A stretch of DNA of 54,913 nucleotides, taken from a virus. Under the pieces are notes generated by a model, which saw only the letters and a list, made by a program, of their open reading frames with translations, searched no databases and was not told the origin of the DNA. The position numbers and the translations under genes were made by a program. This document shows, piece by piece, positions 1 through 54,913 of the stretch. The stretch is from the IMG/VR virus record IMGVR_UViG_3300045988_075804, one strand, 5' to 3'. Position 1 is the stretch's first letter, and every line of letters starts with the position of its first letter.

Positions 1-119
1 GATTACCGGCGATGATGCTGGAGTGGATGTCTTTGCAGTCTCTCCGGATCCTGAATATCTCCGGGAGAGAATGAGAGAGGAAGCGGAGGAGCTGTTGGCT
101 GGGTTCCAAAACAGCGGCA
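1..119. repeat. Terminal overlap of the contig, identical to 54795-54913 (circular-assembly redundancy)
   Basis: Read base by base. 1-119 (gattaccggcgatgatg...aaaacagcggca) equals 54795-54913 over the full length. Confidence 0.95.
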
Positions 120-6587: not shown

Positions 6588-6881
6588 ATGAAAAAATATG
6601 AGTTGAATAGAAAGCAGTATGACCGCATCCGAAAAATGGATCACAATGGCATGAAAGAGTATCTGAATGCAGTATATGAGAACGGGTACAGAGCCGGAGA
6701 AAGAGCGGTATCTGAAAAAGCAGCAGAGGTTCCGGATCTGGCTGGTCTGGAGGAGGAAATGCAGAACATCCGTGGCATCGGGGGAGCAAAGGCAAGAGCG
6801 GTATGCGAGGTTGTAAAGAGTTTCTTTGAGAGAAAGGTGGCTGGTCCCGATGAAACCGGTTCTGAAATATCCGGGGAGTAA
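6588..6881 (+). CDS. Hypothetical protein (97 aa)
   Basis: ATG after GGAGGAATAACAGGAC. Confidence 0.55.
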   Translation: MKKYELNRKQYDRIRKMDHNGMKEYLNAVYENGYRAGERAVSEKAAEVPDLAGLEEEMQNIRGIGGAKARAVCEVVKSFFERKVAGPDETGSEISGE

Positions 6882-7665
6882 ATGGAGGATTGCCGGAGAG
6901 ATTGTAGCAAGGATTCCGGAACACCACACGTACCTGGAGCCGTTCTTTGGGAGCGGAGCTGTTTTCTTCTCAAAGGAGCCGAGCAGAATTGAAATGATAA
7001 ATGACCTTGACAACAACGTACCGAACCTATTCCGTTGCATACGGGATGATCCGGACAGACTGGCCAGAATTGTTGCGACAACGCCTTATTCCAGACATGA
7101 GTATGAGAGAGCGTTTACATCGAATGAGGAGCAGGACAATTTCCAGAGAGCGGCTGACTTTCTGACTACATGCTGGCAAGGTCATGGGTTCCGGACAAAT
7201 GGGTACCGGGTGGGCTGGAAAAACGATGTACACGGTCGGGAGAGTATGTACGCTCTCCGGAACTGGTACAATCTGCCGGAGGTTATCCTGGAGACCGCAG
7301 AACGCTTGCGGTGTGTCCAGATAGACAACAGGCCGGCACTGGAAATAATAAAGAGGTTCAATTATCCGGATGTTTTCATGTACATAGGCCCTCCGTATAT
7401 CCTGGGAACCAGGACAGCAAAACAGTACAAGCATGAAATGACGGATGCAGACCATGAGGAGTTACTGGGTGTCCTGAAAAACTCAGAGGCTATGGTAATG
7501 ATAAGCGGTTATGAATCGGAACTTTACGACAGCATGTTAAAAGGCTGGCACAAGGAGCAGTTCCGGTCAAATGCTGAATACGGAGGAAACAGGGTAGAAA
7601 CTGTCTGGATGAATTACGAGAGGCAGTTTACTATAAAAGATTTTCAACAGGAAAAATTATTTTAA
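6850..7665 (+). CDS. Dam-like (D12-class) N6-adenine DNA methyltransferase
   Basis: N-terminal KYPGSKWR...EPFFGSGAVFF (AdoMet-binding motif) and GPPY in place of DPPY. Start is ATG 6850 (alternative 6826). Confidence 0.8.
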   Translation: MKPVLKYPGSKWRIAGEIVARIPEHHTYLEPFFGSGAVFFSKEPSRIEMINDLDNNVPNLFRCIRDDPDRLARIVATTPYSRHEYERAFTSNEEQDNFQRAADFLTTCWQGHGFRTNGYRVGWKNDVHGRESMYALRNWYNLPEVILETAERLRCVQIDNRPALEIIKRFNYPDVFMYIGPPYILGTRTAKQYKHEMTDADHEELLGVLKNSEAMVMISGYESELYDSMLKGWHKEQFRSNAEYGGNRVETVWMNYERQFTIKDFQQEKLF

Positions 7666-7678
7666 GGAGGATTGCAAA

Positions 7679-8326
7679 ATGGCAACTATCAAAAGAACAG
7701 AAACGAGCAATGTCACATGGAAAGAGGTTCTGGAAATCATCAATTCCGGGAAAGCGACTGAGAAGCTGAAACCAGGAACGGAGATTACGGAAACCTTAAA
7801 GGATGGCAGTAGAGCCGTAATAGCGGTGGCAGCCGTAGACTTATACCAGAACGGTGAAGTTATTTTCTGCTTCCGCAACACTGTCGGGGAAGATCACCGG
7901 ATGAACAAGGAGTGGACGAACAAAGGAGGCTGGAAAGATTGCAAAATGAGAGAATACCTGAATAGCGAAATCTTGGCTCTGCTTCCGGATGAACTGGTAG
8001 AAATGCTTTCACCTAAGAAAACTATTCAGATTCAGAATGGTTCTACTTTGGAGTGTGAGGATCTTCTTTTTCTACCGTCCGAGTACGAGGTTCATGGAGA
8101 GGAGATTTATGCAAAATACAACGGGGTAGACAAACAGTTTCCGTTCTACAAGGAGAGAACGAACCGTATTGTTGTTGATGAAGATGGAGACACAACATGG
8201 AGGTGGTTGGCATCTCCGTACGCCAGCAACACCACCTACTTCTGCGATGTCTACTTCAGCGGCAATGCCACCGACAGCATACGCATCCACCTCGTTTGGC
8301 GTGGCCCCTGGCTTCGCAATCCGTAA
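7679..8326 (+). CDS. Second (remote) DGR target protein carrying VR2. The C-terminus is frameshifted relative to TR and VR1.
   Basis: ATG after AAGGAGGATTGCAAA. The last ~125 nt align to the TR at 45408-45520. The C-terminus reads ...GNATDSIRIHLVWRGPWLRNP instead of the ...SFGVAPGF-type end. Confidence 0.75.
   Translation: MATIKRTETSNVTWKEVLEIINSGKATEKLKPGTEITETLKDGSRAVIAVAAVDLYQNGEVIFCFRNTVGEDHRMNKEWTNKGGWKDCKMREYLNSEILALLPDELVEMLSPKKTIQIQNGSTLECEDLLFLPSEYEVHGEEIYAKYNGVDKQFPFYKERTNRIVVDEDGDTTWRWLASPYASNTTYFCDVYFSGNATDSIRIHLVWRGPWLRNP
8202..8315 (+). repeat. DGR variable repeat 2 (VR2)
   Basis: 114 nt versus TR 45408-45520 (113 nt). 13 substitutions, all at TR adenines, plus one extra T near 8280. 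Confidence 0.85.
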
Positions 8327-8331
8327 ATCTT

Positions 8332-8361
8332 AAAATCCTGCCCCCTAGTGGGGCAGATTTT
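8332..8361 (+). other. GC-core hairpin downstream of VR2 (DGR target-recognition-type stem-loop)
   Basis: Core ctgcccc (8338-8344) pairs with ggggcag (8350-8356) around loop ctagt. An AAAAT/ATTTT extension flanks it. Same geometry as 44688-44722. Confidence 0.65.
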
Positions 8362-8377
8362 CTATCAGGAGGTTAGT

Positions 8378-8986
8378 ATGGAATTATACAGAGGAAAATC
8401 AAAAAAGACGGGTTCCTGGATCATTGGAACGGTTGTTTGCATGGGAAACAGGGCTTTTGCCCTGGTTTCTCCGAATCTGGAGCCGGAGAGACCGGCGTAC
8501 AATGGCATGGCGATGGGGTGCGGTCTGGAGGATAAAGGACTGACGGAAAAAGCCTATCTCGCCATGGAATACGGCTGGGAGGAGGCTTTGGAGCGGTACG
8601 AGGAAGATTTCCCTATCTGGGAAGAATTAGAGCCGGAAACGGTCACCAGATGCTGTGACAGGCACGATATACCGGGGAACGTTCTGTTTGAGGGCGATGT
8701 GTACCGGAATCCGGACAATCTGTTGTTCGAGATTTGCTACGGGAAGTATATGGCATTTTGCCCGGCAGATAAGGCATGGATGGAAAGTGTCGGCTTCTTT
8801 GCAGTCTCTAGGGATGTAGAGGAACTTTACCAGGTAAAAGAACCTATGCCGCTGGGTACTACAGAGGATTACGCTTACCTGGTGGGGAATGTGTTTGATA
8901 ATCCGGAACTTTCCCAAGCTCACAAAGAAGCGGATTCGGGAGCGGCAAAGGGAGCAGCACAGCCCGTACTCATGCCGGCAACATAA
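8378..8986 (+). CDS. YopX-like protein
   Basis: ATG 8378 lies after GGAGGTTAGT. The C-terminal VGNVFDNPEL resembles the GNI(Y/H)ENPEL end of the YopX family. Confidence 0.5.
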   Translation: MELYRGKSKKTGSWIIGTVVCMGNRAFALVSPNLEPERPAYNGMAMGCGLEDKGLTEKAYLAMEYGWEEALERYEEDFPIWEELEPETVTRCCDRHDIPGNVLFEGDVYRNPDNLLFEICYGKYMAFCPADKAWMESVGFFAVSRDVEELYQVKEPMPLGTTEDYAYLVGNVFDNPELSQAHKEADSGAAKGAAQPVLMPAT

Positions 8987-9014
8987 AATCTTGCTATGCA
9001 AAAATAGGTTTGCA

Positions 9015-9023
9015 TGGTATAAT
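9015..9023 (+). promoter_or_regulatory. Extended -10 promoter (TGgTATAAT) for the lipoprotein gene
   Basis: TGG TATAAT at 9015-9023, about 33 nt upstream of ATG 9056. The -35 is weak. Confidence 0.45.
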
Positions 9024-9055
9024 CAACGAAAAACACGAAGCGGAGGAAATGAAGT

Positions 9056-9643
9056 ATGAAAAAAGTGGTTGTATGGTTAATGGTGGCTATGATGGCAGTA
9101 TCTGTTTGCGGATGCGGTTTCAGTGATGGTGTGAAAGATGGCATGGAGGCAGCGGCCAACAAAGAAACAGAGACAGAGGGAGCGACTGAGGAGCAGACCG
9201 AAGCAGAGGAGACCGAAGTTAAGGAACCTGAGAGCGTTCCGGAAACAGAAGCTGAATCGGAGGAGGAAACACCGGGAGTAAGCGTGGGACCGGAAAAGGC
9301 AGAGACCGCTCAGGTTGAGAGTATCAATGTTCTTATGACCGCACCGGTAACGGAGCATGAAGAAAAGAACGATACAAAGTGGGCTGAGGTTGTCGTGGAT
9401 AAAGAGCTTCTGAAAGCTACCACGAATGAAGAATTTGCTGAGTTCTGCAACAAGGTTGTAAAAGATTCCGGTTACAACTGGGTAACAATCTCATGCGGAG
9501 ACGGTACCGGCATCCAGTTCCAGGGTTCTCTTTCATACCTGGCTACGTATGGAACGATTGACACGGACGGTTGTATCGAGGAAGCTGCCGGCACGATTGT
9601 TCTCCAGGAGGACGGTACTTACAAATATTCTGAGAATGAGTAA
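9056..9643 (+). CDS. Secreted acidic lipoprotein (moron-like)
   Basis: MKKVVVWLMVAMMAVSVCGCG is a signal peptide with a lipobox-like Cys. It is followed by a Glu/Thr-rich linker. The gene has its own promoter. Confidence 0.65.
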   Translation: MKKVVVWLMVAMMAVSVCGCGFSDGVKDGMEAAANKETETEGATEEQTEAEETEVKEPESVPETEAESEEETPGVSVGPEKAETAQVESINVLMTAPVTEHEEKNDTKWAEVVVDKELLKATTNEEFAEFCNKVVKDSGYNWVTISCGDGTGIQFQGSLSYLATYGTIDTDGCIEEAAGTIVLQEDGTYKYSENE

Positions 9644-9777
9644 CCCATGTGGTACCGGATGTTGTTTACATTTGTAACATTATGGTTACAATCTTTCAAT
9701 ATCCGGGATGCCATGTTTATACAATGACACCGGAATGTTACAAACGTAAACTTTATAAAAAATCAGCAAAATAAGGT

Positions 9778-9806
9778 TTGACACAAGGTTTTCTGTACGC
9801 TAAAGT
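9778..9806 (+). promoter_or_regulatory. Promoter TTGACA-17-TAAAGT without the dyad operator
   Basis: TTGACA 9778-9783, TACGCTAAAGT ending at 9806. The spacer caaggttttctgtacgc lacks CGCACCATxGTACG. Confidence 0.55.
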
Positions 9807-9836
9807 TAAGTTATCAAAAGGAAAGGAGCTACGGAA

Positions 9837-10088
9837 ATGCCTGAAATATCAACGTTCTACGGTATCACAATTCGGATGTTCAATAAAGACCATCAGCCGC
9901 CACATTTCCACGCAGAATACGGCGGAAAGATGGAATCAATCGACATCAGAACAGGACGGGTACTTGTAGGTAATCTTCCCAAAAGAGCCCATAAGATGGC
10001 TATGGAATGGTGGGAGATACACCGAGACGAACTGTTGGAAATGTGGGAAACCAAACAACTAAACAAAAAGCTGCCTCCCCTCGAATAG
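9837..10088 (+). CDS. DUF4160 family protein
   Basis: MPEISTFYGITIRMFNKDHQPPHFHAEYGG... is the hallmark N-terminus of DUF4160. Confidence 0.75.
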   Translation: MPEISTFYGITIRMFNKDHQPPHFHAEYGGKMESIDIRTGRVLVGNLPKRAHKMAMEWWEIHRDELLEMWETKQLNKKLPPLE

Positions 10089-10438: not shown

Positions 10439-12184
10439 TCACGATTTGTATTTGAATTTGTGGGTCAGACCGTTCCGGAACACGATGGAGGACACACGCC
10501 CGTCCACGAGCAGCACGGAATCCAGGACGGTTTCCATGTATGCTTTCAGAATTTCCGGGGAAACGTTCTGAGCCAGGTTTTTGAAATATATGTATTGCCT
10601 GTTTTGCAGCTCCCTGGAGATTAACAGGTGGCTTGCCTGGCGGACAAATTCCTCGTCCGATAGAGAGGGTTCACTGTTTTTGGCAACCATACCCAGCATG
10701 GCGTTGATCTCCTCCAGGCGTTTTGAAATTTCCGTTTTCCGGATGATGAAATCTTTTTCCGACATAGAGGTATCAGAGTACAGATAGAGGTCCTGGAGCC
10801 TTTTCATGGCACGTTCCTGTTTTTCTTTCTCTTTCCTCAGAGTCTCCACCTCCGGGTCAACCTCAGCTTTTTTCTTCCGGGACTTCTTGACGGAAAAGGT
10901 ATAGGAATCATCAGAGCCGTACCTGGAAAGAAGATTGAAATATTCATTCAGACCGTTGCCGTCTATATGTTCAACCTCTGAAAAGGTGTTCCCGTATAGG
11001 AGACAGCGTTCCAGGTCCTCCGGATTCTCGATCGTGGAGAACCTTTTCTTTGCTCTGAGCATATTAAGAATATAGTTTATGACAAATTCCCCTACCTGAG
11101 TATCTGACACAGTTGGGTTATCACATTCTTTGGTCTTTCGGTGCTTCGGACAGCTGTAATTTGTTGGACGATAACCGTTCGCATGAAGTCTGCCGGGGGT
11201 AGAAACCATCTTGCTTCCACATTTTCCACAGTAAGCAATGCCTCCGAAAATATGCACACGTTCGGTCTGGTGTTTCTGACCTACAGACCTATGGTTGCGT
11301 GAGTTCTCGTCCAGTATGGCCAGCATTTTCTCATGTTCCTCCAGGGAAAAGATTGCCGGGTGGTGGTTCTGGATCATAATCCATTCGTCCTCCGGATTTT
11401 CGACACGCCGCTCCGTTCCTTTATACCGGTTGTAACGGTATATACCGGCATAGAAAGGACTGGAGATAATGATCCAGACAGCAGTGGGAGACCATTCGGC
11501 ACCGGCTCTTGTTTTGTAACCGGAAGCATTGAGCATCCGGGAAGTGTGTACGAGCGACTTATGCTCCATGTAGTCATTCTTTATCATTTGGCAGACCTTT
11601 TCCTCGTCCTCCCGGATGGAAAACGCTGTTTTATCCGGATCATAATCATACCCGAAAGGGATGCGGCCGCCGTTCCACAGCCCACTGTTTGCCCTGGAGA
11701 TCATAGTGGCTGTGACACGCTCAGAGGTCATGTTACGTTCAAGTTCTGCAAATACCAGGATGATTTTCAACATGGCTTCCCCAATAGCGGTCGAAGTGTC
11801 AAACTGTTCGTTCTTGCTGACAAAAGTAACCCGGAGTTCCTGCAATTCCTCGTACATTTCCGCAAAGTCCAGAAGATTTCTGGAGATACGGTCTATCTTC
11901 CAGACGAGTACATGGGTAAATTCTCCCTTGCGGATCCTCTGCATCATTTCCTGAAAAGCCGGACGGTCGGTGTTCTTTCCAGAGTAGCCGGCATCCTCGA
12001 ATATCTCGTATTCCTCTATACCTAGAATCAGGCTGGCGTATGCGATCAGGTCTTTCCTCTGCATCGGCAGAGAATCACGGTCCACCTGGTACAGCGTTGA
12101 TACCCTGATATAGATTGCTACTTTTTGCTTTCTGGAAAGTCCGGATTTGGCTTTTCCAGGTCTTTTGTTCGTTGTCCTACTCAT
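10439..12184 (-). CDS. int: Large serine recombinase (integrase)
   Basis: N-terminal resolvase motif VAIYIRVSTLYQ...DSLPMQ. Recombinase domain, Zn ribbon (CGKCGSKM...CPKHRKTKEC) and a C-terminal coiled coil. 581 aa. Confidence 0.9.
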   Translation of the reverse strand: MSRTTNKRPGKAKSGLSRKQKVAIYIRVSTLYQVDRDSLPMQRKDLIAYASLILGIEEYEIFEDAGYSGKNTDRPAFQEMMQRIRKGEFTHVLVWKIDRISRNLLDFAEMYEELQELRVTFVSKNEQFDTSTAIGEAMLKIILVFAELERNMTSERVTATMISRANSGLWNGGRIPFGYDYDPDKTAFSIREDEEKVCQMIKNDYMEHKSLVHTSRMLNASGYKTRAGAEWSPTAVWIIISSPFYAGIYRYNRYKGTERRVENPEDEWIMIQNHHPAIFSLEEHEKMLAILDENSRNHRSVGQKHQTERVHIFGGIAYCGKCGSKMVSTPGRLHANGYRPTNYSCPKHRKTKECDNPTVSDTQVGEFVINYILNMLRAKKRFSTIENPEDLERCLLYGNTFSEVEHIDGNGLNEYFNLLSRYGSDDSYTFSVKKSRKKKAEVDPEVETLRKEKEKQERAMKRLQDLYLYSDTSMSEKDFIIRKTEISKRLEEINAMLGMVAKNSEPSLSDEEFVRQASHLLISRELQNRQYIYFKNLAQNVSPEILKAYMETVLDSVLLVDGRVSSIVFRNGLTHKFKYKS

Positions 12185-12458: not shown

Positions 12459-12800
12459 TTATCCCCTTTTACGGTCGGCATATTTCTCCGGGACTACCAT
12501 GTGGGTACGGAGGAAATCTTTGCACATTTTCTGCTTTTCCTCCGGAATATGGGCGATGATGTCCAGCCATTCTCTGTCTGAATCAGACAACGCACTATCA
12601 GAAGCCGGCCCATCGAGTGTAATCAGATAATCCAGAGATACGTTGAGCTTCCTGGCAATAGCTAAGCACATTTCGATATTGGGAACAGAGCCGTTTTTCC
12701 ACTTGCTGACGTTCCCGGAACTGAAACCAAGCTCTTTCAAAACGGTAGTGGGTGTTGTCCCTTTATCGTTGCATATTTTGTAAATGTTGTCGTAAAACAT
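12459..12800 (-). CDS. CI-like XRE-family repressor (HTH only, no S24 peptidase domain)
   Basis: ATG 12800 lies after GGAGGTGCGT on the minus strand. TTVLKELGFSSGNVSKWKNG is an HTH. The gene is divergent from the Cro-like gene. Confidence 0.75.
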   Translation of the reverse strand: MFYDNIYKICNDKGTTPTTVLKELGFSSGNVSKWKNGSVPNIEMCLAIARKLNVSLDYLITLDGPASDSALSDSDREWLDIIAHIPEEKQKMCKDFLRTHMVVPEKYADRKRG

Positions 12801-12842
12801 ACGCACCTCCAAAAAAATAACGCACCAAAAGAAAAATTCTGC

Positions 12843-37219: not shown

Positions 37220-40200
37220 GTGAGAACGTTGGCTTATGATGGCACACTAAAATTTGATACAAGTATTGACAGTAAAGGCTTTCAATCCGGGATAGACGGA
37301 ATAGGAAGCATAGCCGAAAAGGGCTTAAAGGCGACAGGTGCCATCCTTGCCGGAACCGCAACTGCAATAGGAGCTATCGGTGCAGCCTCAGTAAAGGTTG
37401 GCTCTGATTTCGAGGCTTCCATGTCAAAAGTAGCGGCAATCTCAGGAGCTACGGGCGATGATCTGAAAGCATTAACCGACAAGGCAAAGGAAATGGGTGC
37501 AACTACAAAGTTCAGTGCTTCCGAATCGGCGGATGCTTTGCAGTACATGGCTATGGCTGGCTGGAAAACAGAAGATATGCTGAACGGCTTAGAGGGTATT
37601 ATGAACCTGGCAGCCGCATCCGGCGAGGACTTGGCGACCACCTCAGATATTGTTACCGATGCCTTGACGGCGTTCGGGTTATCCGCAGAGGATTCCACAC
37701 ACTTTGCGGATGTATTGGCACAGGCATCCTCTAACGCAAATACTAACGTTGGAATGATGGGAGAGACGTTCAAATACGTAGCTCCGGTAGCTGGTGCTTT
37801 AGGATATACAGCGGAAGATACAGCCCTTGCAATCGGGCTTATGGCAAACTCCGGAATTAAGGCAAGCCAGGCAGGTACTTCTTTGCGTTCCATCATGTCA
37901 CGTATGGCAAAACCGACCAAAGAGGTCCAGGGAGCCATGGACAAGCTGGGAGTATCACTAACAGACAGCAACGGCAACATGAAATCACTTAATGAAGTGA
38001 TGGGAGATCTGAGAAATGGTTTCGCTGGTCTGTCAGAGGCTGAGGCGGCAGAAATGGCAGCCGCTCTTGGCGGACAAGAAGCGATGTCCGGCCTACTTGC
38101 TATTGTAAATGCTTCCGATGATGATTTTGATAAACTGTCCGATGCTATTTATTCATGTGACGGCGCAGCAAAGAGAATGGCTGACACCATGAACGACAAC
38201 CTGCAAGGTCAGATCACAATCCTAAAATCAGGATTAGAGGGGCTTGGTATCTCTCTGTATGAGAACATGGAAGCTCCGCTGAAAGAGGTTGTAAAAGAAG
38301 CCCAGAACATGGTACAGCAACTCCAGGATGCGTTTAATAACGGCGGACTGGATGAAGTTGTTTCTACGGTCGGGGATATTTTCGCCCAGATCGTAGAGAA
38401 AGCCGCATCGGCAGCCCCGGATTTGATAGACGTAGCTTCCGACATGATCCAGTCGTTCTTGACTGGCATAAATAACAATCTACCGAATATTGCTTCTGCA
38501 GGAGTAGATATAGTAACATCCCTTGGCTCAGCCCTGATTGAAAACACAGGATTACTCTGGAGTACCGGAGTAGCGTTGCTGGCTGAGGTTCTTTCCGGAT
38601 TGGCGGACAACATGCCACAGCTGGTAGAATCAGCGAAAGATGCGTTGTCGCAATTTGGTTCCGCCCTCGTAGAATACGCTCCGTCCATCGGAGAATCGGC
38701 GGCAAAAATAGTATCATACCTGGCAAGTGCGGTCATTGAAAATCTGCCTCAGCTCATCGAGGTAGGAAAGCAGATTGTCCAGGGATTTATAACAGGAATT
38801 GAACAGGAGTTCCCAGGTCTGGGAGCTTTTTTAAGTGGATTATTTGATGGTTTCGCATCCACACTGGCACCGATAGCTCAGACTGTCGTAGATGCCCTGA
38901 GTAATATTTTCTCTGCTCTTGATGGAGCAGATCCGGAAACCATGGAGGCACTTGGCAAAGCGATCGGAACTATAGCCGCATCCATAGCAGCACTGAAAGT
39001 AGCTTCTGAGGTAGTCGGAGGAGTTAAGAGCCTCATGAGCGTACTTGGTGGTTTTGGAAAAACTGCCAGAAGTATCATAGGCATAGTACCGAAAGTGGTA
39101 GAGGGATTCCAGTTATTATCCGGAGGAGCCGGAACATTCAGTGAAGTTCTTGCCCTAGAGTTCCCGAAACTCGCCGGAATCGTAACAAAGGTAACCGGTT
39201 CATTCGGTACGCTTGTAAGCGCCATATCTGGAATATTTACAAAGATAGGTGCGGTTGTAGGTCCGGCTATTTCAAAAATAGCAAGTCTGATCGCCAGCAT
39301 AGGTCCTACCATAGCCGGAATAGGAGCCGTAATTGGCGGAGCCGTCATGGCGGTAACGAACTTCTTTGGTATGCTCAAAGACGGTTTCAGCTGGGTAAAA
39401 GAAGCTCTGATGGTGATCGGAATTGCCATAGCTGCCGTAGGTGCTGTGATTCTAGGCGCACCTGCTTTGGTAGCCGCAGTCGTAGCCGGAATCGTAGCCG
39501 CAGTCGCTACCCTGGTTGTGGCAATTAAAGACCACTGGACACAAATCGTCGATTTCTTCAAGGGAATACCTGACAAAATCGGTGAGGTAGTGGATTCTAT
39601 CGTAGCCTGGTTCCAGGAACTTCCTGGGCGAATTTCAACCTGGCTGACAAATACAATAACGGCGATTACTGAGTGGGGTTCAGAACTCTACACAAATATC
39701 ACAACTTTTGTGAGCGAAGCTATATCGGCGGTCGGAGACTGGTTTTCTCAGCTGCCTTATAAAATCGGGTACGCACTCGGTACAGCCATAGGCACGATTA
39801 TCCAGTGGGGTATCAATGTAAAAGACTGGGTAACAACCGAACTTCCAAAAATCATACAAAGCGTTGTAGACTGGTTCGCCCAACTTCCAGGAAGAATCTG
39901 GACTTGGCTCGTAGGCGTGGTAAATAATATCATCGCCTGGGGTCAGAATATGTACACCACGATAACCACGGCTGCCACAAACGCCGTTAATTCGGTTATA
40001 AACTGGTTTTCACAACTTCCGGGACGTATCTGGACTTGGCTGGTAAATACCGTCAATAACGTAATTCAGTGGGGGCAGAACTTATACTCCACAATGACCA
40101 CGGCTGCCACAAATGCAATTAACAGCGTAACGAGCTGGTTCCAGCAATTACCGGGTAAAATCTGGACTTGGCTGGTAAACACGGTAACGAAAGTCGGGCA

Positions 40201-40774
40201 GTGGGCGATCGACCTGAAGAATAAAGGTGTCGAGGCGGCTCAATCCCTCGTGAACGCCGTAATTGATGGGGTTTCTTCTTTACCAGAAAAAATGAAAGAA
40301 GTCGGAGTGAACATCGTGAACGGTGTCTGGAGCGGAATTTGCAGTGCAAAGGATAAATTCGTAAGCGATGTCAAGAGTTTCTTCTCCGGAATCGTAGACG
40401 GTGTAAAGGATGCCCTGGACATCAATTCCCCGTCAAGGGTAATGAAAAAAGAGGTAGGTCGCTGGATTCCTCCTGGTGTTGGAGAGGGCATTGAGGAAGA
40501 AATGCCCGAACTGTACGACCAGACAGACGAGGAAATGGCGAAGCTGGCGGAACACATGCAGGCGGCAGTCGATGTGGAAACCGGAAAAATAACGGTTCGC
40601 TCCAAAGCTCAGGCAGAGCATACAGCTGATACCGAGATGCCGACAGGTGGAGATACCTATATTGACGAGCATATCGAGCAGGAAAATAACTACCATACAC
40701 CGGTGGCAACGCCGAGTGAGGTATCAAAGGCTCAGAGAGAAGCAGCAAGGAAATTGTTAGGAGGTGTGAAATAG
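37220..40774 (+). CDS. Tail tape measure protein
   Basis: 1184 aa. TP901-type core (ASESADALQYMAMAGW...DIVTDALTAFG), hydrophobic Gly/Ala-rich segments and tandem repeats. Confidence 0.9.
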   Translation: MRTLAYDGTLKFDTSIDSKGFQSGIDGIGSIAEKGLKATGAILAGTATAIGAIGAASVKVGSDFEASMSKVAAISGATGDDLKALTDKAKEMGATTKFSASESADALQYMAMAGWKTEDMLNGLEGIMNLAAASGEDLATTSDIVTDALTAFGLSAEDSTHFADVLAQASSNANTNVGMMGETFKYVAPVAGALGYTAEDTALAIGLMANSGIKASQAGTSLRSIMSRMAKPTKEVQGAMDKLGVSLTDSNGNMKSLNEVMGDLRNGFAGLSEAEAAEMAAALGGQEAMSGLLAIVNASDDDFDKLSDAIYSCDGAAKRMADTMNDNLQGQITILKSGLEGLGISLYENMEAPLKEVVKEAQNMVQQLQDAFNNGGLDEVVSTVGDIFAQIVEKAASAAPDLIDVASDMIQSFLTGINNNLPNIASAGVDIVTSLGSALIENTGLLWSTGVALLAEVLSGLADNMPQLVESAKDALSQFGSALVEYAPSIGESAAKIVSYLASAVIENLPQLIEVGKQIVQGFITGIEQEFPGLGAFLSGLFDGFASTLAPIAQTVVDALSNIFSALDGADPETMEALGKAIGTIAASIAALKVASEVVGGVKSLMSVLGGFGKTARSIIGIVPKVVEGFQLLSGGAGTFSEVLALEFPKLAGIVTKVTGSFGTLVSAISGIFTKIGAVVGPAISKIASLIASIGPTIAGIGAVIGGAVMAVTNFFGMLKDGFSWVKEALMVIGIAIAAVGAVILGAPALVAAVVAGIVAAVATLVVAIKDHWTQIVDFFKGIPDKIGEVVDSIVAWFQELPGRISTWLTNTITAITEWGSELYTNITTFVSEAISAVGDWFSQLPYKIGYALGTAIGTIIQWGINVKDWVTTELPKIIQSVVDWFAQLPGRIWTWLVGVVNNIIAWGQNMYTTITTAATNAVNSVINWFSQLPGRIWTWLVNTVNNVIQWGQNLYSTMTTAATNAINSVTSWFQQLPGKIWTWLVNTVTKVGQWAIDLKNKGVEAAQSLVNAVIDGVSSLPEKMKEVGVNIVNGVWSGICSAKDKFVSDVKSFFSGIVDGVKDALDINSPSRVMKKEVGRWIPPGVGEGIEEEMPELYDQTDEEMAKLAEHMQAAVDVETGKITVRSKAQAEHTADTEMPTGGDTYIDEHIEQENNYHTPVATPSEVSKAQREAARKLLGGVK
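39608..40267 (+). repeat. Five tandem 132-nt (44-aa) repeats inside the tape measure gene
   Basis: WF(S/A/Q)QLPG(R/K)IWTWLV... units start at 39608, 39740, 39872, 40004 and 40136. Confidence 0.85.
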
Positions 40775-43756: not shown

Positions 43757-44686
43757 ATGAAAAAAATCGGTGAATTACCTGCAATCACAGACGTCCCGGC
43801 CGGGAGCTTGCTGATTGTAAACACGGAAAACGGCACAAAAAAAATCACTTATGAGGATTTGTGCCAGGCGGTTAAAGCAACACTCGGCATACCTACGGTG
43901 GTGCAGAGTATCGACATCACAGAACCTGGGAATATCCCTGATGGTCCGGTTATTAAAGCGGCCTTTGATTCTGTGAATGATCTTCTTCTCGGAGCGGCTA
44001 CGTACAGTGCTGGAAAAGAGATCGAAATGTCCTGGGCGGAACTCCGGGCAAAGATCAAGACAGAGGATTTTTCCGGATTGCATATCGGGGATTATAAAGA
44101 CATCGTTCTGTCAACCGGAGAGGAAGCAAGGGTTGATCTGTCCGGATTCAATACGTACATGAATGTAGGGGATACGGCTATTCTTACAGAACCGCATCTC
44201 TATTTTACGTTCAGGGATTGCCTAAAGACTACGTATCAGATGAACTCAAGCAATACGAATACCGGAGGTACAGCGGCAGCGGCTCTTACGGCTACAGTAA
44301 ACACGACCATTTATAACACACTCCCGGCAGATCTGAGAGCTGTTATGAAAGAGGTACGCCGACTGGAAAACAATAAAGGAACCTGGGCGTGGGCTTCGAG
44401 AAAACTGTGGCTGCTCCAGGAAACAGAGGTGTTCGGAAGAAATAACTGGTCCGATGGCTATGATGGCGGAGGCATCCAGCTTCCTATTTTTGCTCACTCA
44501 TACAGACACATTGTTAAGGGACTTGGCAAAGGAGCAGCGGAGCGTGGTTCTCGTACGAACTGGTGGTTGGCATCTCCGGACGCCAGCAACACCGCCTCCT
44601 TCTGCCTTGTCAACGACAACGGCGATGCCACCAGCGCCGGCGCATCCTACTCGTTTGGCGTAGCCCCTGGCTTCATAATCTCTTAA
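43757..44686 (+). CDS. DGR target protein 1 (tail-fibre-like N-terminus, C-type-lectin-type variable C-terminus with VR1)
   Basis: ATG 43757 lies after AAGGAGGTACACA. The C-terminal 44 codons align to the TR. The protein ends ...SFGVAPGFIIS. Confidence 0.85.
   Translation: MKKIGELPAITDVPAGSLLIVNTENGTKKITYEDLCQAVKATLGIPTVVQSIDITEPGNIPDGPVIKAAFDSVNDLLLGAATYSAGKEIEMSWAELRAKIKTEDFSGLHIGDYKDIVLSTGEEARVDLSGFNTYMNVGDTAILTEPHLYFTFRDCLKTTYQMNSSNTNTGGTAAAALTATVNTTIYNTLPADLRAVMKEVRRLENNKGTWAWASRKLWLLQETEVFGRNNWSDGYDGGGIQLPIFAHSYRHIVKGLGKGAAERGSRTNWWLASPDASNTASFCLVNDNGDATSAGASYSFGVAPGFIIS
44543..44674 (+). repeat. DGR variable repeat 1 (VR1)
   Basis: 132 nt, gap-free against TR 45389-45520. 16 mismatches, all at TR adenines. 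Confidence 0.9.
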
Positions 44687-44687
44687 T

Positions 44688-44722
44688 CTTCCAATCTCGC
44701 CCCCTTGTGGGGCGGTTGGAAG
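44688..44722 (+). other. GC-core hairpin downstream of VR1 (DGR target-recognition-type stem-loop)
   Basis: Core cgcccc (44698-44703) pairs with ggggcg (44709-44714) around loop cttgt. A cttccaa/ttggaag extension flanks it. Confidence 0.65.
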
Positions 44723-44742
44723 ATGGAGGAGGAATAAAGTAA

Positions 44743-45360
44743 ATGAGCGTATTGAAAAATAATAGAGGTACGTCAGAGCTGGAATTTTACCATACAGCGA
44801 TAAAGTTACGTAAAGAGATTACCCAGAACCTATTACGGGATTTTGGTGTAAAAAATAGGGATGCAGTCAGATCAAAGAATTTCCCGGATGATGAATTGCG
44901 AGTAAAGATAGTCCAGGAGTACCCGAAAATGGAATTGTTTTTCAACAAGTACACACGGATGCAGGAAGAAATCCGCACTCGTGACGTTGTATCGGAATAT
45001 CCATACTGGCTGGTTTTCCGGTTCCGGGATGAAATGATGGATTTGCTGAAACAGCTTATTGATAATATCACGGATGCAAACAGTATTTACCCGATAAATC
45101 TGCATGAGCTGGAAGTGAGGCGAGACTATCAGACAGCAGCAATCGGAGCATGTGAAAAGATGCTCCAGGAATTACAGTATATCATCGAGGTACTGCCGAC
45201 CGATGCAAATAAACTACTCCGGTATGTGGATATGATAGACAAAGAGGTTGCCCTTTTGAAAGGATGGAGAAAGGCGAATGGTAAAATTGCTAAACGCCTG
45301 GACAAACAACAGGAGGGAAACCAAAAACAAAAACCATCAAAGTGCAAAAACCAGCCGTAA
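44743..45360 (+). CDS. avd: Accessory variability determinant (Avd-like four-helix-bundle protein) with a basic tail
   Basis: Lies between VR1 and the TR. Helical, with ...DANSIYP....E.E.RRDYQ..A...C. Lys/Gln-rich C-terminus. Confidence 0.6.
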   Translation: MSVLKNNRGTSELEFYHTAIKLRKEITQNLLRDFGVKNRDAVRSKNFPDDELRVKIVQEYPKMELFFNKYTRMQEEIRTRDVVSEYPYWLVFRFRDEMMDLLKQLIDNITDANSIYPINLHELEVRRDYQTAAIGACEKMLQELQYIIEVLPTDANKLLRYVDMIDKEVALLKGWRKANGKIAKRLDKQQEGNQKQKPSKCKNQP

Positions 45361-45388: not shown

Positions 45389-45520
45389 CGTGGTTCTCGT
45401 ACGAACTGGTGGTTGGCATCTCCGAACGCCAGCAACACCACCAACTTCTGCAATGTCAACAACAACGGCAATGCCAACAACAACAACGCATCCAACTCGT
45501 TTGGCGTAGCCCCTGGATTC
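45389..45520 (+). repeat. DGR template repeat (TR)
   Basis: AAC-rich (14 AAC codons in the VR frame). Donor of both VR1 and VR2. Non-coding position between avd and the RT. Confidence 0.9.
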
Positions 45521-45778: not shown

Positions 45779-46936
45779 ATGACAAGTGAAGAAAGAAAAG
45801 AAGCTCGATACCAGAGGAGAAAAGCATCGAGACAGAAGAGACGTGAGGAACGGTTAAAGGAATATGACGATTTTGACCGGGTTAAGGATGCGAACAACCT
45901 CATAACTGCCTTTAAGAAATCAAAATCCGGAGTTGACTGGAAAGCATCCGTACAGCGGTATGAAATGAATCTGCTCAGGAATATCAACAACACCGTAAAG
46001 GCGTTGGAATCCGGAGAGAATGTGTCGCAAGGGTTTATTGTTTTCTGGTTGTGCGAAAGAGGAAAACTACGTCTGATAAAGAGTGTTCATATCTGGGAAA
46101 GGGTAATACAGCGTTCCCTATGCACCAATGCATTGGTTCCGGTTCTGCAGACTGGTTTAATCTACGATAACGGAGCCAGCATGGAGGGAAAAGGTATTCA
46201 TTTTGCCCTGAACAGGCTGGATGCACACTTGCACAGGTTTTACCGCCGGAATGGTTTCTCAAATGATGGCTACATACTGGTTATTGATTTTTCTAAGTAT
46301 TTCGACAACATACTGCACGAGCCTGTTTATCAGGATTTGCAGAAAAATTTCACAGACGAGCGGATCATCAACCTTGCGGCACAGTTGATCCGCCCTTTTT
46401 GTGCTGATAGGAAAGATGGCAAAGAGATTTCGCTAGGAATTGGCAGTCAAATATCACAAATCCTGGCGGTGCGTTTCCCAAATGGCATAGATCATTTTAT
46501 AGAGCAGGAGCTTGACGTACATGAACACGGCAGGTATATGGATGATTCCTACCTGATACATGAAAGCAAGGAGTATTTACAATACTGCTTAGAAGCCCTG
46601 AAAGAGAAATTTGCTGAAAAAGGTATCATAGTCAATACAAAGAAAACGCAGATCATCAAATTGTCGTCCTGGTTTACTTTTCTAAAATTCAGGTACAAAC
46701 TGACCGAGACCGGCAGAGTGGTTGTTAAGCCATGCAAAGATTCCGTTACCAGAGAACGTAGAAAGCTGCATAAGCTAAAACCTAAATTTGATAATGGAGA
46801 GCTGAACTTCGGGGATTTGAGAACGCAGTATGCTTCCTGGAGAGGGTACATAGAGTACGCCGATTCCTACCGCACAATCTGTAACATGGACAATATTTTT
46901 AATCAGCTGTATGTACCGGCTGGAGAATGGAGGTAA
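45779..46936 (+). CDS. DGR reverse transcriptase
   Basis: ERVIQRSL, LGIGSQISQ (DGR-type I/LGxxxSQ) and YMDD motifs. 385 aa. Confidence 0.9.
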   Translation: MTSEERKEARYQRRKASRQKRREERLKEYDDFDRVKDANNLITAFKKSKSGVDWKASVQRYEMNLLRNINNTVKALESGENVSQGFIVFWLCERGKLRLIKSVHIWERVIQRSLCTNALVPVLQTGLIYDNGASMEGKGIHFALNRLDAHLHRFYRRNGFSNDGYILVIDFSKYFDNILHEPVYQDLQKNFTDERIINLAAQLIRPFCADRKDGKEISLGIGSQISQILAVRFPNGIDHFIEQELDVHEHGRYMDDSYLIHESKEYLQYCLEALKEKFAEKGIIVNTKKTQIIKLSSWFTFLKFRYKLTETGRVVVKPCKDSVTRERRKLHKLKPKFDNGELNFGDLRTQYASWRGYIEYADSYRTICNMDNIFNQLYVPAGEWR

Positions 46937-49122: not shown

Positions 49123-50619
49123 ATGACAGAAAAACAAATGTTTGATTTTCTGGTGACTGGCGGACTGTCAGAACATGGAGCGGCGGTTCTCCTGGGACAT
49201 TTCCAGGCTGAAAGCGGTCTGAACTCCAGAAACCTGCAGAACAGCTTCCAGAAAAAGCTCGGTCATACGGACGATTCGTACACAGAGGCTGTGGACAATG
49301 GAACGTATGGCAATTTTGACCGGGATGGAGCCGGCTATGGTCTGGCTCAGTGGACTTACTGGAGCAGAAAGGCGAATCTTCGTAATTTTGCAGAACAGGC
49401 AGGAAAGAGCATCGGGGATCCGGAAATGCAGCTTTCTTTCGCACTGCATGAGCTGAGCGGTTACAAGACTGTTATTCAGGCTTTGAAAACAGCAACGTCA
49501 ATCCGGGAAGCATCGGACATTGTTCTGGAGCAGTACGAGAAGCCGGCAGACCAGTCCAAGGCAGTAAAAGTAAAAAGAGCCGGGTATGGCCAGGAAATTT
49601 ACAATCGCTGTACCGGCAGAAATGAGGAGGAAAAAGAATTGAAAACGAGAAGTGAAGTAGTGAACCTGGCAAACAGCTGGTTGGGAAAGAATGAGGCAGA
49701 CGGCTCATATAAGAGTATCATCGACATTTACAACAGTTTTACCGGAAGTTTTCCGAGAGGAACCAAGATGCAGTATTCATGGCCTTGGTGTGCTTGTACA
49801 TGGTCTGCCCTGGCTATCAAGCTGGGATATACAGACATTATGCCTATCGAGATCAGCTGTTATTACCTGATCGAGAGAGCAAAAGCCATGGGTATTTGGA
49901 TTGAGCAGGATAACCGGGTACCTAAAATCGGTGAGGCTGTTCTGTATGACTGGAGCGATGGTACAGATTACGCCACCACGGACAACACAGGTACTCCGGA
50001 TCATGTCGGCGTAATCGTGGAGGTACACGAATCAGCCGGCTATTTTGTTGTTGTCGAGGGTAATTACTCCAACGCCGTGAAAAAGCGTACTCTTTCCATC
50101 AACGGCAGATATATCCGTGGCTTTATCAGTCCTAAGTATGATGCTGATGGAGGTACAGTACGGTTTCAGACACCAGGAAAGAGTGTTGAGACAGTAGCGA
50201 GAGAAGTTATTGCTGGTACCTGGGGAAATGATCCGGAACGCAGCAAGAAGCTGAAAGCAAACGGTTACGATCCTGTCGCAGTCCAGGCGAAAGTAAATGA
50301 GATTCTGAATGGCTCTGCTGTGAAGCCATCCGGAACTACTCCGGAGGAAAGTGCTACAAAATCCGTTACAGCTTCCGACTACGCCCAGAAAGGTCCGGAT
50401 TCTTCCGTGGCTGGTACCTACAAAACAACAGCTGATCTCTACATGAGACACGGAGCCGGAAAGAATAAGAAAGCCATGGTTGTGATTCCAAATGGAACAC
50501 CTGTCAGCTGTTACGGCTATTACAGCATTTCCAGAGGCGTGAAGTGGCTGTATATCCAGGTTGTTCTTGACGGGGTAAAGTACACCGGCTTCAGCTCCGG
50601 AGCATATTTGAAAAAATAA
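49123..50619 (+). CDS. Endolysin with lysozyme-like, CHAP and C-terminal SH3-like domains
   Basis: GHFQAESGLN...YGLAQWTYWSRK (phage tail lysozyme type). WPWCACTW...DHVGVIVE...GNYSN (CHAP Cys/His). C-terminal YKTTADLYMRHGAG... Confidence 0.85.
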   Translation: MTEKQMFDFLVTGGLSEHGAAVLLGHFQAESGLNSRNLQNSFQKKLGHTDDSYTEAVDNGTYGNFDRDGAGYGLAQWTYWSRKANLRNFAEQAGKSIGDPEMQLSFALHELSGYKTVIQALKTATSIREASDIVLEQYEKPADQSKAVKVKRAGYGQEIYNRCTGRNEEEKELKTRSEVVNLANSWLGKNEADGSYKSIIDIYNSFTGSFPRGTKMQYSWPWCACTWSALAIKLGYTDIMPIEISCYYLIERAKAMGIWIEQDNRVPKIGEAVLYDWSDGTDYATTDNTGTPDHVGVIVEVHESAGYFVVVEGNYSNAVKKRTLSINGRYIRGFISPKYDADGGTVRFQTPGKSVETVAREVIAGTWGNDPERSKKLKANGYDPVAVQAKVNEILNGSAVKPSGTTPEESATKSVTASDYAQKGPDSSVAGTYKTTADLYMRHGAGKNKKAMVVIPNGTPVSCYGYYSISRGVKWLYIQVVLDGVKYTGFSSGAYLKK

Positions 50620-54498: not shown

Positions 54499-54913
54499 AT
54501 GAAAGAAAGACACGCACAAATTTTGGAAGCTATTAAGAGCTTCTACCAGGAGAACGGTTTCTGTCCGACTATCCGCCAGATCGGGGATATGGTAGGGCTG
54601 AAATCCACGTCAACCGCGATAACGCACCTGAAAGCGATGGAGAAAGCCGGTCTGATTATCCGGAACGAATTTTCGCCACGTTCAATCATAATTCCGGGTT
54701 TTAATGACAGAAAACCCGAAAATGATAACGTTTTCGGTAAAATTGAAACGGAAAACACCGGTTTTGAACCGGTTTTCGTACTGCATGGATTCTGGATTAC
54801 CGGCGATGATGCTGGAGTGGATGTCTTTGCAGTCTCTCCGGATCCTGAATATCTCCGGGAGAGAATGAGAGAGGAAGCGGAGGAGCTGTTGGCTGGGTTC
54901 CAAAACAGCGGCA
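54499..54913 (+). CDS. 5' part of a LexA-N-terminal (winged-helix) DNA-binding protein without an S24 peptidase domain. It continues at position 120 through the junction (191 aa in total).
   Basis: ATG after AAAGGAGCAGCAC. MKERHAQILEAIKSFYQENGFCPTIRQIGDMVGLKSTSTAITHLKAMEKAGLI mirrors LexA residues 1-65. Confidence 0.75.
   Translation, partial: MKERHAQILEAIKSFYQENGFCPTIRQIGDMVGLKSTSTAITHLKAMEKAGLIIRNEFSPRSIIIPGFNDRKPENDNVFGKIETENTGFEPVFVLHGFWITGDDAGVDVFAVSPDPEYLRERMREEAEELLAGFQNSG
54795..54913. repeat. Terminal overlap, identical to 1-119
   Basis: See feature 1-119. Confidence 0.95.

Follow-up and report, generated by a model that had tools for sequence, protein, structure and literature searches.

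A remote second target of a single diversity-generating retroelement in a human-gut temperate phage carries a one-base insertion that probably inactivates it

Diversity-generating retroelements (DGRs) that act on several targets, including a remote one, are established, and a layout with one large and one small target of the DUF6273 family, the small one encoded away from the virion genes, has already been described in the phages Shimadzu, FP_Toutatis, Lelie and CP11. The closest described system is that of the Roseburia phage Shimadzu (LR596903; bioRxiv 10.1101/575076), in which one template repeat (TR) serves two variable repeats (VRs), with VR1 in a tail gene adjoining the reverse transcriptase (RT) gene and VR2 in orf43, whose product of ~210 aa has no known function and which lies in a non-structural region ~12 kb from the RT. 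Both of these VRs are diversified, as judged by virion read analysis (Cornuault et al., bioRxiv 10.1101/575076). Here we analyze a virus genome of 54,913 nucleotides, IMG/VR record IMGVR_UViG_3300045988_075804, referred to throughout at its full length as the window, in which one TR likewise serves two VRs and VR1 again lies in a tail gene adjoining the RT. Its RT is 47.9% identical to that of Shimadzu, the closest described RT, and orf43 is the closest described relative of its small target, here called target 2 (32.5% identity over 93% of the query). VR2 of target 2 contains one base more than its template, and we consider it probable that target 2 is the small second target of a single DGR in which the RT itself made an insertion, leaving an allele that is null, tolerated and reversible. 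The features of target 2 are as follows:

7679-8326, plus strand: target 2, the small DGR target gene, frameshifted allele (215 aa; the intact form has 217 aa)
8202-8315, plus strand: VR2, 114 nt, aligned to TR 45408-45520 (113 nt)
8280, plus strand (placement ambiguous within 8279-8281): inserted T, inside the AA of the TR at 45485/45486
8281-8333, plus strand: out-of-frame remnant coding for the conserved protein end ASTSFGVAPGFAIRKS, followed by a stop; part of a +1-frame open reading frame (ORF) at 8169-8333
8292-8315, plus strand: conserved 3' end of VR2, with VR-type GGCTTC against GGATTC in the TR (resembling the initiation of mutagenic homing site, IMH, and its TR counterpart IMH*, respectively)
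8332-8361, plus strand: GC-rich hairpin 3' of VR2 (core CTGCCCC-CTAGT-GGGGCAG, 8338-8356)

In a local alignment, VR2 differs from the TR by 13 substitutions, every one of them at a TR adenine (P ~1.5e-8 under random positions, given 33 A among 113 TR positions), and by a single inserted base, T8280, which is the only difference of any other kind. Re-alignment returned zero non-A mismatches, in agreement with the alignment given in an earlier note on this DNA (13 substitutions, all at TR adenines, and 114 against 113 nt). The inserted T falls in the fourth unit of the copied (AAC)x4 run of the TR, where it sits between two A's, matches neither neighbor and has a non-homopolymeric context. The extra base shifts the last 17 codons, and the 215-aa ORF ends in NATDSIRIHLVWRGPWLRNP; when T8280 is deleted in silico, a 217-aa ORF ending in NATDSNASTSFGVAPGFAIRKS is restored, with its stop at 8331-8333 at the foot of the hairpin, the same arrangement as at VR1. 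The proposal that a one-base insertion wrecks a conserved C-terminal strand, and that its repair returns the stop to the hairpin foot, holds on both counts. As a separate observation, an A-to-G change at window position 8303 (TR 45508), within the otherwise constant GGCGTAGCCCC segment at the 3' end of VR2, is common to the window clone and one related contig (L049) and is absent from the ten in-frame alleles described next.

That target 2 is or was diversified by the DGR, as previously suggested from the window sequence, could be checked against relatives of target 2 drawn from IMG/VR and metagenome contigs, 10 of which carry a complete in-register VR2 of 113 nt. Compared with the TR, these ten alleles contain 130 substitutions at A sites and one elsewhere, a T-to-C change in a contig of 2.6x coverage, and the check confirmed the suggestion. 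Across them 29 of the 33 TR A positions vary, and the DNA flanking VR2 is 94-99% identical among relatives. Similarly, the 90%-identity protein cluster of target 2 comprises 2546 distinct sequences, and its sampled members (n=14) differ almost entirely at VR-encoded positions. At 10 further loci VR1 is diversified at A sites and the TR is invariant. Collectively, these population data identify VR2 as an active target of the cassette at 44.7-46.9 kb, with A-restricted hypervariation confined to VR2.

Several individual members of this population depart from the common pattern. In one contig (L018, OLFV01010648.1), VR2 differs from the unmutated TR only in the VR-type C at its 3' end, and is either the product of non-mutagenic homing or the consensus collapse of a very heterogeneous VR population. 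One cluster member (P0012) has an in-frame 3-nt deletion within VR2 (NTAFC for NTTxFC), and two proteins (P0007 and P0014) end in GFIIS, as target 1 does, either through a 6-nt deletion in the 3' flank or through exchange with the VR1 flank.

The cassette and the first target comprise the following features, with the RT assigned by profile matches and pairwise identity (Bordetella phage records matched in addition to Shimadzu):

43757-44686, plus strand: target 1, the large DGR target gene and the final one in the tail module, DUF6273 (Pfam)
44543-44674, plus strand: VR1, in target 1
44743-45360, plus strand: Avd-like accessory protein (PHROG 3206 'Avd protein of DGR', E 1e-6)
45389-45520, plus strand: TR, of which VR2 draws on 45408-45520
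45779-46936, plus strand: DGR reverse transcriptase (Pfam RVT_1; PHROG 1423, E 2e-73)

Local alignment of VR1 (44543-44674) with the TR (45389-45520) gave 16 mismatches, 16 of 16 at A. Sequences resembling the 5' and 3' ends of the TR occur in exactly three copies in the window, namely the TR, VR1 and VR2, where ~0 would be expected by chance, and the position that distinguishes their 3' ends is C in every VR1 and VR2 allele and A in every TR. The hairpin behind VR2 has a DNA fold z-score of -3.5 (0 of 200 shuffles equally stable) and is also called terminator-like, and that behind VR1, at 44686-44724, has a z-score of -5.6 (again 0/200 equally stable). The two hairpins lie 22-23 nt past their VRs and are homologous to each other; fold analysis of the 3' flank of the TR found no hairpin there. 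Likewise, what follows VR1 is homologous to what follows VR2 as far as the end of the hairpin, unlike the sequence that follows the TR. By these sequence features, both of the elements by which VR2 would be recognized as a target, the GGCTTC end and the hairpin, are present.

The frameshift itself recurs in independent assemblies. An identical 215-aa product was found on 26 contigs from three sources (JGI/IMG, ENA and Logan) and at least three sequencing runs, and five fetched loci, which came from runs SRR2250853, SRR2221421 and SRR2221442 and from sample SAMN02334124 and were put together by differing pipelines, show 100% identity with the window across stretches of up to 12.6 kb. The project concerned, PRJNA217052 (FijiCOMP), is a human cohort cited in Fiji islander studies, and the VR1 allele of the window is likewise unchanged within it. 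These many assemblies are one mutational event seen recurrently and not multiple independent origins. T8280 is absent from every other Illumina-based allele, and all other lineages are in frame (10/10 other DNA alleles and 13/14 sampled cluster proteins).

An artefact of sequencing or assembly, with a true VR2 of 113 nt, was considered as the source of the extra base, given that VR regions are heterogeneous and repeat-rich and that assemblers may build chimeric paths through them; the TR-identical VR2 of L018 may be such a consensus collapse, and contig L021, from a long-read-like assembly, illustrates that indels can be plain sequencing error. However, the same 114-nt sequence was obtained by four assembly routes (JGI/IMG, Logan, MEGAHIT at k127 and a scaffold pipeline) and in at least three runs with flanks that are 100% identical, its context is non-homopolymeric, and slipping by one AAC period would insert 3 nt rather than 1. 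Because the same product appears in multiple runs and pipelines, an assembler artefact is very unlikely, and the assembly error that the earlier note had listed among its explanations is effectively excluded by the 26 JGI, ENA and Logan contigs. A 1-nt deletion in VR2 of L021 was examined as a second frameshift allele and rejected, as this contig has 94 gap openings against the window, a long-read-type error profile.

The consequence for the protein can be read from its domain. Against Pfam DUF6273 (PF19789, gathering cutoff 23.5 bits), the frameshifted protein scores 51.6 bits (E 1.3e-13) with a match that stops at profile position 153 of 172, and the repaired protein scores 58.6 bits over positions 16-170 of 172. 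Target 2 is a single-domain DUF6273 protein, and its VR lies at the C-terminal end of that domain. When 35 family members sharing as little as 35% identity are aligned, several of the best-conserved columns fall in the C-terminal motif A-S-x-S-x-G-V-A-P-G-F-x-I, where G207, V208, F212 and I214 are invariant or nearly so. An AlphaFold2 model of an in-frame allele (predicted local distance difference test 95.5, predicted template modeling score 0.91) has its last two strands at 197-201 and 211-215, which is the part replaced by the frameshift. Since the replaced residues are the most conserved ones and form the last two strands of the model, the frameshifted allele is almost certainly null.

With respect to fold, the best solved-structure match to the model of the intact protein is PDB 9qa6 (Foldseek E 1.6e-5, TM score 0.63 on the query). 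It is the only solved structure with significant similarity, classical C-type lectin domains being weak Foldseek matches, and a profile search against PDB sequences gave a marginal match only (E 0.067). Predicted viral structures that matched were DUF6273 proteins, some of them fused into tail-fibre or receptor-binding proteins. A C-type-lectin fold has been stated for relatives (PMC10743442) and is plausible for target 2, where the model shows it weakly.

Target 1 is 31% identical to target 2 over residues 118-308, and target 2 is without the ~110-aa N-terminal extension of target 1, which bears out the remark that it lacks a tail-fibre-like N-terminus. It also lies after the lysis genes, and its homologues in five other elements are likewise outside structural modules; in these respects target 2 does not have the properties of a virion receptor-binding protein.

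We propose the following course of events. The TR transcript would be reverse-transcribed with misincorporation at adenines, and the resulting complementary DNA (cDNA) would replace VR2, guided by two features that VR2 has in common with VR1, its VR-type 3' end and the GC hairpin downstream. The product would be a stand-alone DUF6273 ligand-binding domain of 217 aa with its last ~40 residues rewritten. In the window clone, one base would have been added in the copy of the (AAC)x4 run at the most recent retrohoming or, with lower probability, by a replication error after it, and the conserved C-terminal strands (ASxSFGVAPGF-I) thereby exchanged for 17 unrelated residues. Such a lesion would be tolerated in an accessory gene near the right prophage end (attR) that is not a virion gene needed for propagation. 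Because the TR, RT, Avd, VR 3' end and hairpin are all intact, the lesion would in principle be self-healing, in that a 113-nt copy would take the place of the 114-nt VR at the next retrohoming and bring back the frame.

With regard to the origin of the insertion, we lean modestly toward the RT or cDNA step, by slippage in the AAC run; an indel from the cDNA step was one of the three explanations offered by the earlier note. The cDNA made by the RT-Avd complex of BPP-1 contains rare single-base insertions and deletions, at 0.1% (PMC6182149), slippage on the template has been put forward for AAC repeats (PMC12875486), and length variation elsewhere in the VR2 population, the 3-nt in-frame deletion of P0012, also counts for an origin in the cDNA step. 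The principal alternative, which appears possible though clearly the less likely account, is that the insertion arose spontaneously as an ordinary error of replication or repair, unrelated to DGR cDNA, and would be a first step of pseudogenization under relaxed selection. One lesion does not suffice to name a mechanism, VR1 and VR2 are frozen across the runs that carry the clone, and apparent null alleles also occur outside the VR, suggesting relaxed or conditional selection. Against this, the T stands between two A's without the homopolymer or neighbor-duplication signature that is usual for polymerase slippage, its site is precisely the A-rich AAC run, where errors of the DGR RT cluster, and no other difference between VR2 and TR departs from A-site substitution; moreover, with the cis elements and DGR genes all intact, the lesion need not be permanent.

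The apparent null alleles outside the VR are losses of the start codon. In L049 the ATG at 1279-1281 (window 7679-7681) is changed to ACG, and the gene is called as a 143-aa protein from an internal Met; the remaining ORF and a diversified VR2 are intact, making this a second kind of putative null allele. The start codon is also lost in proteins P0113 and P0118, the latter paired with L049. Because start-loss alleles exist and the frameshift clone persists across several runs, the data suggest that the phage can do without the target 2 protein, at least over short periods.

The shift might instead be functional, either by programmed +1 ribosomal frameshifting or as a truncated isoform, forming a DGR-driven on/off switch resembling phase variation. 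The downstream frame is open to the normal stop, and the DGR could in principle create and erase an 'off' state. Nevertheless, the insertion occurs in no relative (10/10 DNA alleles and 13/14 sampled proteins are in frame), the sequence around 8280 varies among alleles and holds no conserved frameshift signal, and the residues replaced are the most conserved of the family. With neither insertion nor signal kept among relatives, we regard a functional frameshift as highly improbable.

Decay of the target, another of the explanations offered previously, is unsupported: there is one 1-nt lesion only, with zero non-A mismatch, and every cis element, including the 3' end and the hairpin, is intact. 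The description of the locus as unusual was overstated, as remote small DUF6273 targets and rare 1-bp indels in DGR cDNA have both been published. Several points nonetheless weigh against the interpretation of a tolerated, reversible RT error. An RT origin and an ordinary replication or repair error are indistinguishable by sequence alone, and the grounds for loss of function are conservation and a model. In the runs with the window clone neither VR1 nor VR2 varies, which gives no direct sign of current DGR activity in that clone. All insertion-bearing contigs represent one clone from one cohort, possibly from one or a few related people, and the insertion was judged from assembled contigs rather than read pile-ups.

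The position of target 2 has to be read on the phage map, which includes the following features:

6826-7665, plus strand: D12-class N6-adenine (Dam-type) DNA methyltransferase (Pfam MethyltransfD12, E 1.4e-22)
9715-9725: approximate crossover of the phage attachment site attP (attR, the right prophage end, once integrated), where homology of integrated copies stops
10439-12184, minus strand: serine integrase (phiC31-type)
12459-12812, minus strand: repressor
13.2-26 kb: early/replication operon, divergent from the repressor (RecT, exonuclease, replication initiator, DnaC, RusA)
26893: terminase, with head and tail genes after it, including the tape-measure protein (37220-40774)
49123-50619: endolysin, downstream of target 1, Avd, TR and RT

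A 119-bp exact direct repeat joins window positions 1-119 and 54795-54913 as a terminal overlap. The window is a circular (or terminally redundant) assembly with a unit length of 54,794 bp, and because of this repeat, linear distances that span the cut are artefacts. The 37 kb formerly given as the distance between VR2 and the DGR is such a product of the cut site; on the circle, VR2 starts ~17.5 kb past the end of the TR. A block of ~14.5 kb of mostly unknown plus-strand genes runs from the endolysin across the cut to attP at ~9.7 kb. The crossover of the serine integrase is probably at ~9715-9725, since integrated copies lose homology to the window there and enter host genes beyond it (L050 12020-12040), namely PilZ, VanZ, prephenate dehydrogenase and formate/nitrite transporter genes. 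Only two prophage genes separate target 2 from the attR end, ~1.4 kb away. Its assignment to an accessory region is upheld by this location between endolysin and attP, but not the assignment to an early, repressor-controlled operon, which is the one at 13.2-26 kb.

The stop of the D12-class methyltransferase gene and the start of target 2 are separated by 14 nt, and because so little separates them the two genes are probably co-transcribed. The final gene ahead of attR is a lipoprotein-like ORF of 195 aa (9056-9643), which weakly matches a PHROG for superinfection exclusion (E 3.6e-4) and has a position typical of lysogenic conversion. By megablast, neither the locus at 6800-9700 nor the 24-kb structural/DGR region yielded a useful match among GenBank phages, and the RT protein of this phage is indexed in 314 blocks of the assembly collection.

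In searches with the N-terminal part of target 2, genome contigs yielded only relatives of 24-38% identity, in metagenome-assembled genomes (MAGs) of Clostridia/Oscillospiraceae. Among the more distant relatives, a myovirus (L048) has the order large DUF6273 target, Avd-like gene, TR, RT, lysis genes, N6 methyltransferase, small DUF6273 gene and serine integrase. A methyltransferase gene lies directly upstream of the small DUF6273 gene in the window (D12), in L048 (N6_Mtase, 9243-9971) and in Shimadzu (L045, 11622-11963), and in L047 a C5 methylase gene (7562-9216) ends ~0.8 kb upstream of it with two ORFs between. The idea that a methyltransferase always precedes the small target is a lead only, none being recognized by eye, without a Pfam scan, upstream in L012 and L038-L043.

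Other relatives place the domain in different surroundings. A homologue that is 54% identical to target 2 (P0035, in L034-L037) exists as one identical 217-aa sequence in 245 blocks, next to genes for a Y-family polymerase, HNH, PARG-like and PDDEXK proteins and a transposase. No RT was called near it in the fetched flanks (6-10 kb upstream and 6.7-10 kb downstream), and it appears to be a frozen copy, one that does not diversify, within a different mobile element. L046 (12652-13023 and 6557-7258) carries a small DUF6273 gene in an early region that is rich in anti-defence functions, with an Acb2/Tad1-hairpin protein, a metallo-beta-lactamase-fold protein (weak match to the anti-Pycsar protein Apyc1) and an S-adenosylmethionine synthetase. 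In an Eubacteriales MAG (L044, 2020-4062), a 680-aa protein, its domains read by eye from the translation, combines a Ser/Thr-kinase-like N-terminus, a hydrophobic, putative transmembrane stretch and a C-terminal DUF6273, a fusion that shows DUF6273 in a cellular signaling architecture. A Clostridia MAG (L038, 12-1083) has two small DUF6273 genes in tandem.

With this locus, a very widespread but previously undescribed temperate phage of the human gut joins those whose DGR serves two targets with a single template, and the locus provides a clean natural example of a cost of mutagenic retrohoming, a frameshifted and probably null target allele fixed in a circulating clone. The persistence of null alleles, by frameshift and by start loss, suggests that the protein is not needed for propagation, with which any proposed function must be consistent, and the locus sharpens the question of what role the small non-structural DUF6273 targets have. 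One speculative answer, to which we give little credence, is that the small stand-alone proteins of the DUF6273 family are no part of the virion and act inside the cell as hypervariable binders, within a counter-defence or immunity gene block, with DGR-made frameshifts as reversible 'off' states. It would be in keeping with small DUF6273 proteins that have no signal peptide, lie outside structural modules and repeatedly stand beside methyltransferases of different classes, and with an anti-defence-type gene ~2 kb downstream of the small DUF6273 gene in one relative. If true, the DGR would tune an intracellular interaction between phage and host, and the next retrohoming would switch an 'off' allele back on.

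Compared with the described systems, the locus combines shared and divergent features. BPP-1, the Bordetella phage with Mtd, bRT, Avd, IMH and hairpin, has in common with it the A-specific transfer from TR to VR, an Avd-like protein, a VR situated at the 3' end of its ORF, a difference between the 3' ends of VR and TR, and a GC hairpin after the VR. It differs in having a single adjacent target, at the tail-fibre tip, whereas a remote second target is present here, and in a target fold that is Mtd in BPP-1 and DUF6273 here. The Thomasclavelia ramosa IgA peptidase's N-terminal domain (9qa6; PMC12402451), which its depositors assign to DUF6273, resembles the model of target 2 in fold; it is part of a secreted, cell-wall-anchored bacterial protease and not a DGR target, and the similarity in sequence is the marginal one noted above.

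The Faecalibacterium phages are nearer in layout. Lelie and CP11 (PMC11792537), like FP_Toutatis, pair a large DUF6273 target with a small one and place the VR at the domain's C-terminal end, as here, and Lelie has a serine (phiC31-type) integrase, the same as the window phage. In FP_Toutatis (bioRxiv 10.1101/2024.10.15.618418), a second DUF6273 VR gene lies in the core genome 17,480 nt from the TR, close to the spacing found here. The small targets of these three phages are too divergent to be detected from target 2 by tblastn at E < 1e-5, the gene order around their cassettes differs from that of the window, and the large target of FP_Toutatis is a tentaclin-like Ig-domain protein, unlike target 1. 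Shimadzu, the closest of all, is a 45-kb myovirus without nucleotide similarity to the window phage; its orf43 belongs to an early/replication operon, whereas target 2 lies in a post-lysis block near attR, and no frameshifted allele has been reported for it. Like target 2, orf43 directly follows a DNA methyltransferase gene.

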